Positions 2,646-59,696 of a stretch of DNA of 59,696 nt are shown here, piece by piece. Position 1 is the stretch's first letter. Each line of letters starts with the position of its first letter. Location: positions 1 to 59,696 of the forward strand of contig JAUSES010000058.1 in the NCBI GenBank assembly GCA_030649835.1, written 5' to 3'. Below the pieces are notes generated by a model that saw only the letters and a list, made by a program, of their open reading frames with translations, ran no database searches and was not told where the DNA came from. The translations under genes were made by a program, and so were the position numbers. The DNA is from a bacterium. Lineage in GTDB: Bacteria; Patescibacteriota; Minisyncoccia; Phycocordibacterales; UBA1550.

Positions 2646-4055
2646 ATGAAGTACATATCGACACGTGGAAAAGGCGGGATATTGGGTTTTCCAGAGGTGG
2701 TACTTGCAGGACTCGCAAAGGATGGAGGCCTGTATGTTCCCGATCACTTTCCAAGGGTAACGAAAGACGAAATTGATCAATTTTGTAAATATGAGTACCA
2801 TCAAGTAGCATTTGCGATTATGAAAAAGTTTGCTCCTGATATGAATGCGAGCAAGCTTTGGACTGCGGTGCGCAATTCTTACAAACCGGAAATCTTTGGA
2901 AACGTCAATAACGGTGATAATGCTTTCGAAATCGTTCCAATCCATAAGCTTGACAACAATTTGTTTTTGGCACGACTGAGCAATGGACCAACCCTAGCGT
3001 TTAAAGATCTTGGGCTTCAGCCTCTCGGCCATTTGTTTGAAACGGTTTTGAGCGGCAAGAACCTCAATGTCCTCGGCGCAACTTCTGGAGACACTGGTTC
3101 AGCTGCAATACGAGCGATGCTTGGACGCAAGGGTATTAGTGTTTTTATGCTCTCACCTCGTGAGGGAATGAGCGCTTTTCAATCGGCTCAAATGTGGGGG
3201 GTTAACGATGAGGCGATACACAATATCGCAATCAGGGGTTCGTTTGACGACTGCCAAAACATTGTAAAGTTGATTAATGCTGATGCTGAGTTTAAGCAGA
3301 AGTATAGTCTGGGCGCTGTTAATTCGATTAACTGGGCCCGCATTGCCGCCCAGGTACCGTATTACTTTCGTGCGTATTCTCGGGCTTGTGGTGAAGCAGG
3401 GGGTCAGGTTGATTTTGCAATTCCTACAGGTAATTTCGGAAACATCTACGCAGCTTATGTCGCAAAGATGATGGGCTTGCCTATTCGCAATTTGATCCTT
3501 GCAACAAACGAAAACGATGTATTGCACGAGTTCTTCGTTACTGGCATTTATCAGCCACGCTCGAAGACTATCACTACATCGAGCCCTTCTATGGACATAA
3601 CCAGTGCATCGAACTTCGAGCGTTACATTTATCACCTCTTGGGTGGGGATGCGGTGCGAGTTGCAGGACTCTGGCGTGAACTGAAGGATACCGGCAGATT
3701 TGACTTATCACACCTGTTGAATGAAATTAACGCCACCGGCATTACGTCTCATTCTATCAGTGAGGCTGATTCATATGCTGTCATCCGCGAAACTTACAAT
3801 CAGTATGATGTAATTATTGATCCACATACTGCTATCGCGATGAGTGCGGGACGGAGAATGATAAATGACGGTGTTCCGATGATTGTTATGGAGACCGCAC
3901 AACCATGCAAGTTTGATGAGACTATATCAAAGGTTCTTGGCACAACTGCTCAAGTTCCATCTGGTATGAAAGGAGTAATTAATGCCGAGCAGTTCTTTAC
4001 GGTACTGGATCCTGATGCTGAACAGGTGATGGACTTCATTCGTCAACGGGCATAA
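2646..4055 (+). CDS. thrC: threonine synthase
   Basis: MKYISTRG...GLAKDGGLYVP N terminus and PLP-enzyme body (FKD, GDTGSA). Start moved to ATG at 2646. Confidence 0.92.
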   Translation: MKYISTRGKGGILGFPEVVLAGLAKDGGLYVPDHFPRVTKDEIDQFCKYEYHQVAFAIMKKFAPDMNASKLWTAVRNSYKPEIFGNVNNGDNAFEIVPIHKLDNNLFLARLSNGPTLAFKDLGLQPLGHLFETVLSGKNLNVLGATSGDTGSAAIRAMLGRKGISVFMLSPREGMSAFQSAQMWGVNDEAIHNIAIRGSFDDCQNIVKLINADAEFKQKYSLGAVNSINWARIAAQVPYYFRAYSRACGEAGGQVDFAIPTGNFGNIYAAYVAKMMGLPIRNLILATNENDVLHEFFVTGIYQPRSKTITTSSPSMDITSASNFERYIYHLLGGDAVRVAGLWRELKDTGRFDLSHLLNEINATGITSHSISEADSYAVIRETYNQYDVIIDPHTAIAMSAGRRMINDGVPMIVMETAQPCKFDETISKVLGTTAQVPSGMKGVINAEQFFTVLDPDAEQVMDFIRQRA

Positions 4056-4734: not shown

Positions 4735-4743
4735 TGCGACTTG

Positions 4744-5150
4744 TGGAGATGGGGGGAATCGAACCCCCGTGCAGATGATGTTCTTCGTGGAATCTACTGT
4801 GCGTAGAATAATTATTTTGGGTTTAAGTAGTTTGTGTATAAATTATTCTAAATCACAAATTACCGATACTCTATGTTTTTTCACTTTGTAGAGTCATTCA
4901 AAGTGATGAGCCCTCTTTTTATATCACCCAGAATTCCCTAGAGGGCGTACTGAATCTGAGTGCTGTTTAGGCTACGAAAGCGTAAGCAGGAGCAAAGGCG
5001 TTAGCACCAAAATATGGTGATACGATAGCCTTTGCTTTTGCAACGAGGTTGTTTTTTGCAACTAGGTTGGGTTCGAGATTTAACGAGATCTCGAGCATTC
5101 TCGGCATAGCACCAAGAAGAGGGAATCGCCTGTCTAGGCCGATCATCCCC
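4744..5150 (-). ncRNA. ssrA: tmRNA (transfer-messenger RNA)
   Basis: 5' GGGGATG pairs with 3' CATCTCC, including a G3:U70 pair, with discriminator A. T arm is GGGGG-TTCGATT-CCCCC. Internal tag frame reads ...AKAKAIVSPYFGANAFAPAYAFVA-TAA. smpB is adjacent. CCA is not encoded. Confidence 0.9.
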
Positions 5151-5284: not shown

Positions 5285-5554
5285 TCACGCATGCCCTATT
5301 TTGTTTATATAGTTTTGAAAAATTTTCTTTTTCTCTCGTGCTCCCCACAAACTTTTTAGGTAGCGTTCTCGGTTAAATGCTAAATTTTTGTCTGGAAATT
5401 TTTCTGTGTGTATAAGCACGAGAGGGCGCCTTTTGTATGTTGCAGGAACGAGACCATTATTATGTCTCTCTACTCGTTGCTCAATTTCATGTGTACACCC
5501 AACATAAAGGCGCCCATCTTTTTCGCTCATAAGGATATAAACAAAATAGGGCAT
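5285..5554 (-). CDS. GIY-YIG domain nuclease-family small protein
   Basis: YFVYIL...GRLYVGCT...RVERHNNG matches the GIY-YIG/URI pattern. 89 aa. Confidence 0.8.
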   Translation of the reverse strand: MPYFVYILMSEKDGRLYVGCTHEIEQRVERHNNGLVPATYKRRPLVLIHTEKFPDKNLAFNRERYLKSLWGAREKKKIFQNYINKIGHA

Positions 5555-5576
5555 GCGTTTTTAAATTTTCAAATAG

Positions 5577-28250: not shown

Positions 28251-28368
28251 CCCCGTTAGAGGTCGCGGGTGTTTAAGTGGTGTATTGAACATTGGTATTT
28301 AAAAACAGACTTTTGTAGAATTTATTATTTAGGGAGTTTTTGGGCGGAACGCCCTACCTCTAACGGGG
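28251..28368. repeat. family F4 inverted-repeat element (CCCCGTTAGAGG ... CCTCTAACGGGG), 118-nt copy
   Basis: 12-nt perfect terminal inverted repeats. Confidence 0.8.
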
Positions 28369-30079: not shown

Positions 30080-30598
30080 ATGAAAATAAGTGTTATTGAA
30101 CAAGAATTTACTAAGGCGTATGACCAGTTTGCCGATGCGATCTTTCGGCACTGCGTTTTCCGCGTGTCAGATCGCGAGAAGGCAAAGGATATAACGCAGG
30201 TAAGTTTTGTCAGGCTCTACGACTATATGTCACAAGGGAAAGAAATTGAGAACCTCCGCGCGTTTTTATACCGTATCGCAAACAACCTTATCATTGACGA
30301 GTATCGCAAAAAGAAGACAGACTCGCTTGACCGTATGCGTGATGAAGAAGGGTTTGATATCGGCACGGAGTCAATGAAGGACATTGAAACAAAAGACGAA
30401 CATGGGCGCGCTGTCGCCTTACTCGAATGCCTTCCTGAAAAATATCGTGAAGCGCTCGTAATGCGACACATTGATGGACTCTCCGTAAAAGATATTGCGC
30501 ACCTCACACACGAAACAGAAAATGTCATATCGGTACGCATACACCGAGCAATAGAAAAACTCCAGAGACTTAATGTTCAAACTCCCCAACATGGATAA
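30080..30598 (+). CDS. ECF-type RNA polymerase sigma-70 family factor
   Basis: Region 2 (YRIANNLIIDEYRKKK) and region 4 HTH (LSVKDIAHLTHETENVISVRIHRAIEKL). Confidence 0.88.
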   Translation: MKISVIEQEFTKAYDQFADAIFRHCVFRVSDREKAKDITQVSFVRLYDYMSQGKEIENLRAFLYRIANNLIIDEYRKKKTDSLDRMRDEEGFDIGTESMKDIETKDEHGRAVALLECLPEKYREALVMRHIDGLSVKDIAHLTHETENVISVRIHRAIEKLQRLNVQTPQHG

Positions 30599-31577
30599 TA
30601 TTATTAAACAATTAAAAAACGGCGCAAAGCACACACGACTTTCATTTTCTGAAAAATCAGAAATGAAAAATGTGCTTCTTCAGCATGTGAGGATTCACCC
30701 CGTTAGAGGTCGCGAGGGTTCGCAGCGTGCTTCCACCTCTAATGGGGATAATCCAGCAAACACCTCAGTGTTCCAAAAGAAATCTATCCCATCACCTTTT
30801 TCAATACAGAGTTTTAGAAATACAAAAACATTACCGATTTTAGTTATCGTAGGGCTTTTGATGGGTGGCTCAGTTTCGTTTGCGGCAGAACAGACAGTTC
30901 CCGGAGATGTACTTTTTCCAGTGAAAGTTCATGTGAATGAAAGAGCCCGAGGGGCAGTAGCGATAACACCCAAGGCAAAAGCCGAGTGGGACGTGCGCCT
31001 CGTTGAACGCCGTCTTTTAGAGGTTGAAAAACTTGCTGCGGACACGAGTGCCCCATCCGAGACAAAAGCAATCGCAGAGAAAAATTTCAAAGATTATTCC
31101 GAGCGTGTGAAAAACCGCATTTCAAAATTTGAAAAGGATGATGACTCCCATGACGCCATTGAAACCGCCGGTAAGTTTTCCGAGATGCTTCGCAAACACG
31201 AGGGCAAGTTTGAAAAAAGTGATGATCCCGCAAGCCGAATTTTAAAAGAAGAAAATTTAATAGTACAAAATAGTACCACGACAGTAGATGCTTCAGATCC
31301 AGCTTTGTTGGCACCGATGTCCTTTGATGAAGATGAACAACTTAAAGAGGTGCATGAAAAGGTTCGTGAAATGAGAAATGAAACAGAAAAGAAGCAGAAG
31401 GAATTAAAAGAAAAGTATCGTAAGGAAGAAGTACAAAATATCGTTATAGAAACCTTACAGAGTAAGGAGGTGAAGCGAGCACTGAAAGAAAATACTCGTA
31501 GAGAAGAGATTCGCTCAATTTTTGAGAAAAACACAGAGAACAATAGCAAAAAATCAGACAAAACCGATGATAATTAG
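30591..31577 (+). CDS. putative anti-sigma factor / membrane-anchored charged coiled-coil protein
   Basis: Overlaps the sigma gene by 8 nt. Single TM helix (LPILVIVGLLMGG). Extracytoplasmic helical, Lys/Glu-rich region. Confidence 0.55.
   Translation: MDNIIKQLKNGAKHTRLSFSEKSEMKNVLLQHVRIHPVRGREGSQRASTSNGDNPANTSVFQKKSIPSPFSIQSFRNTKTLPILVIVGLLMGGSVSFAAEQTVPGDVLFPVKVHVNERARGAVAITPKAKAEWDVRLVERRLLEVEKLAADTSAPSETKAIAEKNFKDYSERVKNRISKFEKDDDSHDAIETAGKFSEMLRKHEGKFEKSDDPASRILKEENLIVQNSTTTVDASDPALLAPMSFDEDEQLKEVHEKVREMRNETEKKQKELKEKYRKEEVQNIVIETLQSKEVKRALKENTRREEIRSIFEKNTENNSKKSDKTDDN
30698..30747. repeat. family F4 element, 50-nt copy embedded in-frame in a CDS
   Basis: CCCCGTTAGAGG...CCTCTAATGGGG. 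Shares CCCCGTTAGAGGTCGCG with the 28251 copy. Confidence 0.75.
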
Positions 31578-34249: not shown

Positions 34250-34471
34250 ATAATAAATTAAAATCCCACTTGCCCGTGCACGTAAGTGCTTTGGGTCAAA
34301 CCTACGTAACTGTAGGCACAAGCGGGATGTGTGAACTTCGGGTCTCTGCGTATCGGTCGGGTCGGGGTCGCGGAGGGTTACCTCTATTCGGCTTGTTATT
34401 AACTACTTCAATATATAGGAAAACACCTAAAAAAGCAAATTTTACATAGGGTAACCCATATGTAAAAATAG

Positions 34472-35988: not shown

Positions 35989-36324
35989 ATGCTTGAAACA
36001 CTACGCGCGAAACCAAATCATGTGAAGCAAGTAATCTCTATCGTCGTTACGCTAGTTATTTTTTCCGCTATTTTGTTTGTGTGGGTTTCTTCGCGTGATG
36101 CACGCTCACGAGAAATGGAGGTAAAAGGCAAGACTGTCTCACCCTTAGGCGGGGTAACTTCGATGTTTGACGGACTCTGGGCTGATTTTAAGGGTAAGGT
36201 TTCCGATGCGCCCTCTTTAGAGAATATGAATACATTCGTGGCGACTTCAACAGAGAAGGAAAGTTTTGATCTTTCTCGGGTGGTGGTGATCGATGCATCA
36301 GCCACAACTACCGTGGCGCGATAA
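35989..36324 (+). CDS. hypothetical single-pass membrane protein
   Basis: N-terminal TM helix (VISIVVTLVIFSAILFVWV). Confidence 0.45.
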   Translation: MLETLRAKPNHVKQVISIVVTLVIFSAILFVWVSSRDARSREMEVKGKTVSPLGGVTSMFDGLWADFKGKVSDAPSLENMNTFVATSTEKESFDLSRVVVIDASATTTVAR

Positions 36325-51229: not shown

Positions 51230-51279
51230 CCCCGTTAGAGACCCCCGAGATTCGCATGGGGCTCCTGTCTCTAACGGGG
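51230..51279. repeat. family F4 element, 50-nt copy
   Basis: CCCCGTTAGAGA...TCTCTAACGGGG with an internal CCCC...GGGG stem. Confidence 0.8.
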
Positions 51280-57747: not shown

Positions 57748-58812
57748 ATGAAAGACTACTACAAAACACTCGGCGTTGAAAAAAATGCCTCGCAGGACGA
57801 AATAAAAAAGGCGTTTCGTACACTCGCTCACAAACATCATCCCGATAAAGGAGGGGATGAGAAAAAGTTTAAAGAGGCGAGTGAAGCGTATCAAATACTT
57901 TCTGATGAAAAGAAGCGCTCAGAGTACGATACCTACGGCTCTGCTGGTCCGGGGCAGGGTTTTGGTGGTGGTCAAGGAGGAGGAGGCTTTGGTGGGTTTC
58001 AGGGAGGATTTAGCTCGCAAGGTTTTGATGGCGTGGACCTGAACGACATCTTCGGCGACTTTTTTGGAGGTGGGCGCAGAGAACAAGCACGTCGGGGCAG
58101 AGACATAGCCGTAGACCTCGAGATCTCTTTTTCAGAGGCGGTGTTTGGTGTGGAGCACAAGGTGAGGATTACTAAAACATCCGCATGTGATACGTGTAGT
58201 GGCACAGGCGCTAAGCCCGGGGCAAAAATGAAGGAGTGTGCGCAGTGTAAGGGCAAGGGACGTACGCAAGAAAATGTGAGGACAATCCTCGGCACATTCG
58301 CACAGGAGCGCGAGTGTACAACGTGCCACGGCGCAGGGAAAATTCCTGAAGAGAAATGCGCTACTTGTAAGGGCGGTGGCGTTCTTCGCAAAGAGGAAGC
58401 GATAACCATACGTGTGCCATCTGGTATTCAAAACGGCGAGCAGGTACGTCTCGCAGGCGCAGGTGAGGCGGTTTTAAACGGTAAGGCAGGGGATTTGTAC
58501 GTGCGCATCCATGTGGGACAACATAAGCTTTTCAAACGTGAAGGTGCAAACCTCATTATGGGTCTGCAGGTAAAGCTTACCGACGCCCTCCTTGGTGCAG
58601 AGTACCCGATACAGACCCTAGACGGTGAAATAAAACTAAAAATCCCTAAGGGCGTTTCTTCAGGTGAAGTTTTGCGAGTTCGAGAGAAAGGCGTGCCCTT
58701 TAGTGGCAAGCATCGCGGTGATCTCCTCATTAAGCTCGAAGTAAAAACCCCCGCAAAACTCTCCCGCACCGCCGAAAAACTCATTGAAGATTTGCGAAAA
58801 GAAGGGATTTAG
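57748..58812 (+). CDS. dnaJ: molecular chaperone DnaJ
   Basis: J domain with HPD, Gly-rich linker, four CxxCxGxG zinc motifs. Confidence 0.97.
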
Positions 58813-58828
58813 TGGTATAATTAAACGT

Positions 58829-59029
58829 ATGAGCACAACAGCAGTAGAATTTAAAATTAGCAAAAAACCGAAAACAATTTTGGTGGAGTTTAATTCTGCA
58901 CAATTTGAGAAGGTTGCAGGAATTTTTGGTATGTTTAATCCAGATTTTTTAAAGAGCCTTGCGCGCTCAGAAGCGCAATTTCGTAAGGGGCAAGTAAGAA
59001 AAATAAAGTCTCTTGCGGAATTAATGTAA
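58829..59029 (+). CDS. putative type II antitoxin
   Basis: 66-aa ORF ending 8 nt before a RelE/ParE-like gene. Start at ATG 58829. Confidence 0.5.
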   Translation: MSTTAVEFKISKKPKTILVEFNSAQFEKVAGIFGMFNPDFLKSLARSEAQFRKGQVRKIKSLAELM

Positions 59030-59037
59030 CTATATTT

Positions 59038-59307
59038 ATGGAGATTATCACCACTCCTGAATTTGAAGCCCTCTTTAGTGATTTGCCCAAAATAATCAAA
59101 AAGAAGGCAATAAAACAAACAAAATTATTTTGTGGGAATCCATTTTATAATTCACTTAATACGGAAAAAATTGAACCTAGAAATAAACAAGTATGGAGTT
59201 TCCGTGTAGATAAAAATTACCGTATCATTTTTAAATTTTTAGAAAATAAGAGGGTCGTTTTTCTCGCAATGGGTCCTCACAAATGGATTTATCGATTAGA
59301 TTTTTGA
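59038..59307 (+). CDS. RelE/ParE-superfamily type II toxin
   Basis: 89 aa. ...WSFRVDKNYRIIFKF...VFLAMGPH pattern is typical of RelE/ParE toxins. Confidence 0.7.
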   Translation: MEIITTPEFEALFSDLPKIIKKKAIKQTKLFCGNPFYNSLNTEKIEPRNKQVWSFRVDKNYRIIFKFLENKRVVFLAMGPHKWIYRLDF

Positions 59308-59317
59308 TTGTATGAAT

Positions 59318-59696
59318 CCCGTTAGAGATCCCCTGCCCACTTTCGCCAGAACACAAAGTTGAGCTCAAGTGATGGCGGGCGGGCTCAGTTATGTACTACA
59401 CATATATAATTCAGAACGACAAAGGTACATGCTATACTGGAAGTACAGGAGACTTACGGAAACGCTTGAGGGAACACAACCAAGGGAGATCAACGTGGAC
59501 AAAAGGTCAGGGAGTGTGGAAGATTATTTATTATGAAGCGTGTCTTGTTGAACAAGATGCTCGGTCGAGAGAAATATATTTAAAATCGGGAATGGGTAAG
59601 CGCTATCTAAAAAGTAGACTCAAGCGTTTCCTCCTGCCCGCCACTGCCTAATCGTCCTTTTGGACAGTCAGGCGATGGCAGGCGGGGTCTCTAACG
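59318..59696 (+). mobile_element. family F4 long copy: GIY-YIG gene enclosed by F4-type imperfect terminal inverted repeats (truncated by window end)
   Basis: Left end CCCGTTAGAGATCCCCTGCCCAC... and right end ...GATGGCAGGCGGGGTCTCTAACG. Inner inverted GC-rich motifs at 59371..59383 and 59633..59644. Confidence 0.4.
59391..59651 (+). CDS. GIY-YIG domain nuclease-family small protein
   Basis: YYTYIIQN...CYTGSTGDLRKRLREHNQG pattern. 86 aa. Confidence 0.8.
   Translation: MYYTYIIQNDKGTCYTGSTGDLRKRLREHNQGRSTWTKGQGVWKIIYYEACLVEQDARSREIYLKSGMGKRYLKSRLKRFLLPATA

Follow-up and report, generated by a model that had tools for sequence, protein, structure and literature searches.

Contig C17 of a 1.06-Mb bacterial genome (G000, here the source genome; 43% G+C, 77 contigs, 98%-complete) ends in a small GIY-YIG nuclease gene enclosed by inverted repeats. 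This locus raises the question of whether the gene and its repeats together form a mobile element and, if they do, whether the nuclease is what moves it. The window analysed here, that is the whole stretch of 59,696 nucleotides, is the entire contig, and it was compared with the rest of the source genome and with 41 related genomes (Patescibacteria/CPR MAGs). We find that the sequence from 59317 to the contig end, together with 3 nt of a second contig (C67), is one full-length copy of an element family of the Patescibacteria, which we call F4, and that it is placed exactly at the start codon of the cell-division gene ftsW. The original prediction for this locus had described a candidate autonomous element with a GIY-YIG gene between terminal inverted repeats (TIRs), and the end sequences it quoted are present where it placed them. 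The copy and its immediate surroundings have the following parts.

59038-59307, plus strand: HigB/RelE-like toxin ORF of 89 aa, the upstream neighbour (from the ORF list; Pfam PF05015, E=8.8e-8)
59312-59316, plus strand: left target copy ATGAA, the former ftsW start codon, with the target duplication TGAA at 59313-59316 (from the sequence and the target-duplication statistics)
59317-59328, plus strand: left TIR TCCCGTTAGAGA, an outer T plus CCCGTTAGAGA (from the sequence; the outer pair is T..A in most copies)
59333-59383, plus strand: nested GC-rich hairpin module A, CCTGCCCAC...GTGATGGCGGGCGGG, about 51 nt, with an uncertainty of 2 nt at each boundary
59391-59651, plus strand: GIY-YIG nuclease ORF of 86 aa with an internal ATG start (Pfam PF01541, E=1.9e-15)
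59458-59470, plus strand: left arm of the internal stem, GGAAACGCTTGAG, within the LRKRLRE codons and 13/13 complementary to 59619-59631
59619-59631, plus strand: right arm of the internal stem, CTCAAGCGTTTCC, within the RLKRF codons (from complementarity)
59633-59686, plus strand: nested GC-rich hairpin module B, CCTGCCCGCCACTGCC...GGCGATGGCAGGCGGG, 54 nt
59687-59696, plus strand: right TIR, truncated by the contig end (GTCTCTAACG) and continued on C67, across a 134-nt overlap, by GGA and, past the junction, TGAAAAAG

The last 134 nt of C17 are exactly the first 134 nt of C67. Because this overlap includes a 54-nt insert that is unique to the window copy, we take the join to be real, which is itself an inference. 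C67 completes the right end of the element as ...GGGGTCTCTAACGGG / ATGAAAAAG, where the slash marks the junction with the start of ftsW (in a wider view, ...GGCAGGCGGGGTCTCTAACGGG / ATGAAAAAGACA), and this mirrors the left end, ATGAAT / CCCGTTAGAGA, as the original prediction required of a complete right end. The ATG at the C67 side of the junction opens a 364-aa FtsW/RodA-like ORF and is rebuilt from the terminal A of the element plus the target duplication, while the ATGAA at the left now starts a 16-codon uORF encoding MNPVRDPLPTFARTQS (59312-59362). The toxin ORF stops 4 nt before the left target copy; it is the second gene of a two-gene module between dnaJ and the element (58784-59307), in which the first gene is an 81-aa ORF that matches DUF2683 weakly. 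In 20 of the 27 loci from genus relatives, an apparent ORF end lies directly upstream of ftsW, which we assigned to mraY by eye from the C-terminal translation, without a search.

The window copy measures 381 nt, compared to 275-278 nt for the canonical form in relatives (CCCG to CGGG), because two GC-rich hairpin modules are nested inside it, and without them it matches the canonical form of about 277 bp. Module A has 8 copies in the genome, all within F4 units and at the identical position, including the genome's second nuclease copy (C43:8253-8579; 94% amino-acid identity, same termini); it is missing from canonical copies, and two relatives (G009 and G022) lack it in their orthologous copies, which lie at the same argS-like gene. 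In the window copy, module A leaves the frame that opens at the host ATG only 16 codons long, so that the nuclease has to be translated from the internal ATG at 59391. Module B corresponds exactly to the 54-nt gap in the comparison with the C43 copy and alters the C-terminus of the nuclease from ..FLSLTG-stop to ..FLLPATA-stop, a new tail that is disordered in the AF2 model. The window copy probably descends from a variant that already held module A; it would have inserted at the ftsW start codon in this lineage and gained module B later, near its 3' end. The two modules also account for the GC-rich motif that had been reported to occur four times, a count that we confirm, and for the apparent 30-nt TIR. 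Here the inverted ends stand and their length does not: the supposed repeat of about 30 nt is a 12-nt terminus plus the outer arms of modules A and B (nested at ~59333-59383 and 59633-59686), with arms 59320-59332 and 59684-59696 being 92% complementary. The nested-module origin of the TIR and motifs, the 4-bp target duplication and the position at a start codon had all been overlooked. Hairpins of the 54-nt module B type also stand alone outside F4 units (C14 ~3460-3512, C66 ~34370-34421 and C74 ~36200-36252), which, as far as sequence can tell, points to a further small family of mobile hairpins.

Family-wide, the true inverted terminus of F4 is 12 nt (TCCCGTTAGAGA / TCTCTAACGGGA). The pair CCCGTTAGAG..CTCTAACGGG occurs 17 times in the 1.06-Mb genome and is present in 19 of the 41 relatives, and the reversed control pattern has no match in any genome. 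Beyond CCCG and CGGG, the outermost base pair is T..A or, less often, C..G. We observe a target duplication directly: of 71 copies, 35 have matching flanks of 4 bp, 7 of 5 bp and 6 of 3 bp, and 4-bp flanks are identical in 39 of 82 full-length units of other CPR genomes (units from among the matches listed). TGAA is the commonest duplicated word, with TGGA, TGAG and TGTA also found. TTGA is duplicated in one genome whose copies lie at promoter-like boxes. In G027, from another family of the order (loci L001-L018), gene-less copies duplicate TTGA or TGATA and lie at -35-like (GTTGAC) and extended -10-like (TGATATAAT) boxes, not at start codons. The matching flanks define the layout A-TGAA-(T CCCG...CGGG A)-TGAA-A, in which the last A of the element and the duplicated TG rebuild the start codon. 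About 17 copies in the source genome have their right end directly against the ATG of an ORF of 83-917 aa, always in one orientation, and the host genes downstream of F4 copies encode, for instance, FtsW-, GlyA-, pyruvate-kinase- and MurC-like proteins. At the S17 gene (rpsQ), a GTG has been rebuilt in place of ATG.

The canonical form is about 277 bp long and consists almost wholly of the GIY-YIG ORF, with an internal stem of 13-16 bp. In relatives, canonical copies are coding throughout (MNPVRD..., the GIY-YIG domain, ...RLKRFLSLTG-stop), such that translation of the nuclease can begin at the ATG of the host gene itself and stop at a TGA that is formed at the right junction and overlaps the host ATG. 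The source genome also has about 20 gene-less copies, and these gene-less F4 repeats are 110-190 bp long. They are collinear with the full element except for one deletion of about 155 nt between the stem arms, which is exactly the loop of the internal stem. Judged by this collinearity, the gene-less copies are loop-deleted derivatives of the full element, a MITE-like non-autonomous form, and this part of the earlier proposal of a repeat family with gene-less copies holds. Selection on the stem, which lies within coding sequence, is evident, as its pairing is retained by compensatory changes in 12 full-length copies. Single-strand folds are much more stable than those of shuffled sequences, with z = -4.4 for the window copy and -5.9 and -6.8 for gene-less copies. 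Three short F4 sequences lie elsewhere in the window.

28251-28368, plus strand: gene-less F4 copy, 116 nt between CCCG and CGGG, intergenic, with flanking direct repeat TTTGA
30698-30747 (30699-30746), plus strand: mini F4 hairpin, 48 nt, in frame within a 334-aa ORF (30573-31577), to which it adds 16 residues, PVRGREGSQRASTSNG
51230-51279, plus strand: mini F4 hairpin, 48 nt

An integron attC site was ruled out, as the GTT...AAC order is opposite to that of attC. We also rejected uORF coupling as a general route of expression behind a structured insert of 120-380 nt, given that most uORFs opening at the left ATG stop well within the gene-less copies.

Comparison of orthologous loci reveals insertion polymorphism directly, and the empty sites that the original prediction had suggested looking for do exist. 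At ftsW, 27/27 orthologues from the genus are empty sites (no F4 termini within 600 nt upstream) and read ... / ATGAAAAA.. at the junction; also empty are 4/4 orthologues of glyA and 17/21 of murC, where the 4 occupied sites hold different subfamilies. F4 copies are also found nested in one another, and these nested copies, together with the empty and occupied orthologous sites, support mobility at the DNA level well. Some full-length copies are decaying, one in G020 through an in-frame TGA and one in G022 through a frameshift. The family therefore has what is expected of an insertion sequence or MITE, namely shared terminal inverted repeats, a duplication of fixed length (4-bp mode), and orthologous sites that are occupied and empty. 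It lacks what is expected of a homing endonuclease: there are many unrelated insertion sites with duplications, and the protein is a bare catalytic domain of 86 aa. No recognised transposase (DDE, HUH, serine or tyrosine recombinase) is found in the element, whose sole ORF is the GIY-YIG domain. Based on this evidence, we are highly confident that F4 is a mobile element whose only gene is a GIY-YIG nuclease. There is no sign of very recent activity, since the gene-less copies of the source genome are at most 78% identical internally and its two nuclease copies differ by a dS of 0.20; for the same reason, a recent burst in this genome is unsupported.

The nuclease itself has features of a working enzyme. 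The 86-aa protein matches PF01541 at 57.3 bits against a cut-off of 22.6, and Y5, Y15, G17, R25, H29 and E49 are invariant in 31 sequences. Pairwise dN/dS is 0.07-0.33 (0.13 between the two copies of the source genome), and we observe selection on the protein as on the stem; on these ratios, the ORF is under purifying selection. The AF2 model (pLDDT 89.1; elements E-E-H-E-H-H) has the GIY-YIG fold, and the nearest solved structures found by Foldseek are UPF0213 1zg2 and the Slx1 nuclease domain (7cq3/6seh), with TM ~0.6. Slx1 is a structure-specific enzyme. From dN/dS, the invariant catalytic residues and the confident model, and with no activity assay, the protein looks functional.

The link between this nuclease and the F4 termini is exclusive in the genomes compared. 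In the 41 relatives, all ten homologues with at least 59% identity lie between F4 termini, as does the C43 copy, compared to none of about 20 more distant GIY-YIG paralogues, so that the suggestion that other small GIY-YIG genes of this type would carry the same ends is borne out for close homologues. In a tree of 36 paralogues, the F4-associated proteins form one group, separate from the Ssn-like paralogues of the source genome. The co-occurrence statistic for the nuclease and F4 is partly circular and ignores phylogeny, and one relative, G033, has 11 gene-less copies and no close intact nuclease, which counts against the nuclease as the mover. In the 98%-complete source genome, we found neither a larger F4-bounded unit nor an F4 unit with another gene.

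Beyond these relatives, a scan of species-representative CPR genomes yielded at least 120 stretches with F4 units of 274-283 nt that end at an ATG. Among the matches listed, carriers include Saccharibacteria, Kaiser-, Yanofsky-, Nomura- and Doudnabacteria and many others, with a patchy spread over the CPR classes. We read 82 units of 274-283 nt from among the matches listed: 74 have the GIY-YIG motif, an ORF of at least 60 aa follows in the same orientation in 77, and 27 have a frame that stays open from the start codon of the host gene. Some MAGs that are labelled Zetaproteobacteria, Gammaproteobacteria and Bdellovibrionales likewise have contigs with full-length units (L109, L113, L138, L150, L176, L178), which could reflect mislabelling, binning error or real spread beyond the CPR.

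Other GIY-YIG genes of the source genome lie in repeats of different kinds. The window has one more such gene.

5306-5551, minus strand: other GIY-YIG gene of the window, near the tmRNA (4741-5150)

This gene had been said to lack the flanks of the element, and we agree that it has no F4 termini; yet it is enclosed by a 32-nt inverted repeat of its own (5287-5318 / 5527-5558, 91% complementary), whose left arm holds the start codon of the gene. Five other GIY-YIG paralogues that we examined all lie within private inverted repeats of 24-34 nt. For instance, one cassette is located within the 16S rRNA gene, close to the 5' end of that gene (C14:16112-16375; L100 213-476), with 28-nt inverted arms and an Rfam SSU match that spans it. 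In a second example, a cassette with F4-like arms, CCCCGTGAGATA / TATCTCACGGGG (C34:33520-33797; L099 321-597), abuts the RNase P RNA gene, and its right arm overlaps the first ~22 nt of the RNaseP_bact_a match from Rfam. A second palindromic family, GTCTTTGCGAG..AAGCAATCCAG..CTGGATTGC..CTCGCAAAGAC, flanks Ssn-like GIY-YIG paralogues of the source genome (C74:71007-71204, C48:5010-5219, C22:28941-29138, the end of C63 and the start of C8), and one of its copies interrupts an F4 unit at a contig break.

Start codons in the source genome have a particular context. A Shine-Dalgarno-like tetramer precedes 13% of first-ATG starts of long ORFs, versus 7.6% in a control window, and -10-like hexamers are most frequent where they end 6-10 nt ahead of the ATG, which suggests that many genes are probably leaderless. 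With 28% of genes starting in ATGAA, TGAA is frequent at start codons, which, speculatively, may also be melted and offer a single-stranded target.

The closest published system is that of the Ssn nucleases with their NTS/SRM hairpin repeats. Ssn proteins, assigned to CDD cd10448 (GIY-YIG_unchar_3), are single-domain GIY-YIG nucleases that cut ssDNA beside hairpin repeats flanking their own genes, and the IS-like layout of small GIY-YIG (Ssn) genes with such repeats has been pointed out (Chenal et al., Nat Commun 2025, PMC11893778). No account of a GIY-YIG element that is bounded by TIRs or inserts at start codons turned up in the literature searched, and the original prediction was not aware of small GIY-YIG genes described as drivers of TIR-bounded elements; a related idea has, however, been in print since 2025. 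Both systems have a small single-domain GIY-YIG gene with hairpin repeats on both sides and repeats amplified genome-wide. The F4 protein is on a different branch from the Ssn-like paralogues of the source genome, however, and 12-nt inverted termini, a 4-bp duplication, insertion at start codons and gene-less copies derived by deletion are unreported for Ssn/NTS. The published pattern for Ssn repeats, HGTCWYN(0-2)YYVSBRHN(0-5)WNVSBRGN(0-2)RNCYNB (PMC11893778), has no match in the element and 2 in the genome, against 2-5 in shuffles, and we therefore rejected an SRM/NTS identity of the F4 termini. The second palindromic family does not match this pattern either.

Other repeat systems are alike in part. 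F4 resembles the Correia elements of Neisseria in its 100-200-bp units, terminal inverted repeats, short target duplications, many copies and co-transcription with neighbours. Correia elements are MITEs in transcribed leaders with no known coding parent and duplicate TA, whereas F4 has a nuclease-encoding parent of 277 bp and sits exactly on start codons, which it rebuilds. The RAYT (TnpA-REP) enzymes of REP/BIME repeats and those of IS200/IS605 are HUH/Y1 transposases that form covalent intermediates and are not known to make a target duplication. With these systems F4 shares a nuclease gene flanked by putative substrate hairpin repeats, many gene-less repeats and, by inference for F4, a single-stranded hairpin as the recognised substrate, but F4 has a GIY-YIG hydrolase, true inverted-repeat ends and a 4-bp duplication. 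Rickettsia palindromic elements, for which no element-encoded enzyme is known, are likewise tolerated in coding regions, as is the F4 hairpin at 30699-30746. REP/BIME with RAYT and IS200/IS605 are also cited in the discussion of the Ssn report (PMC11893778). Lastly, F4 has its catalytic domain and a selfish lifestyle in common with homing endonucleases of the GIY-YIG type, free-standing or intron-borne (I-TevI, T4 Seg), and with GIY-YIG ORFs that lie in insertions of CPR rRNA genes other than introns (Tsurumaki et al. 2024, PMC11270868); homing enzymes differ in having a separate DNA-binding domain, one cognate site and repair-based spread, while F4 is found in many unrelated genes with target duplications.

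How might the element move? We propose that the nuclease would recognise the folded termini (hairpin or cruciform, and probably single-stranded) and the subterminal stem, as Ssn and Slx1 recognise structured DNA, that its cuts would start excision or copying and insertion, and that host repair or ligation would complete the process, with insertion duplicating 4 bp, usually TGAA as the last four bases of ATGAA. Recognition and cutting of the folded termini, cleavage of ssDNA included, is inferred by analogy to these enzymes. That the nuclease is what moves the element, as the original prediction had it, remains an inference without biochemical or genetic data, and we put it only slightly above an even chance. 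We know of no biochemical or genetic evidence that a GIY-YIG hydrolase carries out the joining half of transposition and of no joining activity for this fold, and to our knowledge a 4-bp duplication is not left by known GIY-YIG enzymes. The explanation as a whole, comprising the anatomy, insertion at start codons, the history of the window copy, gene-less derivatives and movement initiated by the nuclease, is the one that we favour, with moderate confidence. More tentatively, and at somewhat less than even odds, the unit of about 277 bp may be an autonomous transposon of an unrecognised class, in which a bare GIY-YIG domain of 85-95 residues would be the sole mobility enzyme, acting on its own folded termini and maybe aimed at melted ATGs. 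Such a unit would be several times smaller than any insertion sequence known to us. The aiming at start codons is speculative and rests on the leaderless genomes, in which the ATG would lie within promoter DNA melted by RNA polymerase and offer a single-stranded target to an Ssn-like enzyme.

The nuclease could instead be a passenger, with F4 units being ordinary MITEs moved in trans by an unrelated transposase and the GIY-YIG gene a homing-type gene nested in some of them. At least one DDE-type transposase fragment is present in the source genome (C57), genomes like G033 are rich in gene-less copies without a close nuclease, and GIY-YIG genes are classic homing endonuclease genes, and the other paralogues of the source genome include one within the 16S rRNA gene and one bordering the RNase P RNA gene, both enclosed by inverted repeats of their own. 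However, the F4 ORF fills the canonical element from host ATG to junction TGA, so that the termini themselves code. Similarly, the gene-less copies retain a degenerate 5' coding part and both stem arms of the coding sequence and are therefore derived from the gene-bearing form, not the reverse. Given also that no other F4-bounded coding unit was found in the source genome and that the link of the nuclease clade to the termini is 10/10, we consider a passenger role unlikely.

If not a passenger, the nuclease might belong to a domesticated host system of the Ssn/NTS type, one that restricts incoming ssDNA, shapes recombination or provides RNA structures in 5' leaders, with repeats that the nuclease no longer mobilises or never did. 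Ssn/NTS modulates transformation in Neisseria (PMC11893778), although the published SRM motif is not met by F4. Purifying selection on the nuclease, the shared orientation of all start-codon copies, and termini that are intact while interiors have drifted to ~70% identity, which suggests selection in place, would all fit such a role; yet presence varies at orthologous start codons within one genus, with different subfamilies at the same site, copies are nested in one another, some full-length copies are decaying (G020, G022) and the distribution across CPR classes is patchy. Selfish spread fits this variation, nesting, decay and patchiness better than a conserved host function does, and we think domestication improbable. 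A third possibility is that the ends pair in the mRNA leader and that the resulting stem is excised, for example by RNase III in the way that rRNA intervening sequences are; the inverted repeats would then be there to serve this excision. The idea draws on the pairing of the ends, which brings the old and new ATG together, on the probable leaderlessness of many mRNAs (rare Shine-Dalgarno sites, and -10 boxes ending 6-10 nt before ATGs) and on GIY-YIG cassettes that lie within rRNA genes and are not introns (PMC11270868, and the 16S case in the source genome). This would account for tolerance of the element but not for its origin, leaving the target duplications, empty sites, nesting and nuclease gene unexplained, and an Rfam search of the window returned only the tmRNA and one tRNA, with no family matching the element. 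We judge an element acting at the RNA level to be very unlikely.

F4 has practical consequences and, potentially, biological ones. F4 repeats break assemblies, as at the end of C17, and gene callers will misplace start codons at dozens of genes per genome. The structured inserts before the essential genes ftsW, murC, glyA and rpsQ are a natural experiment on translation initiation in organisms that apparently make little use of Shine-Dalgarno sites. Should the nuclease prove to be the mover, F4 would add a new type of enzyme to those that transpose DNA and, among the self-sufficient mobile elements known in cells, would be the smallest. The many small GIY-YIG genes of CPR genomes that lack an explanation would then have a function, and the Ssn story would widen from a host nuclease and its repeats to an active selfish element.
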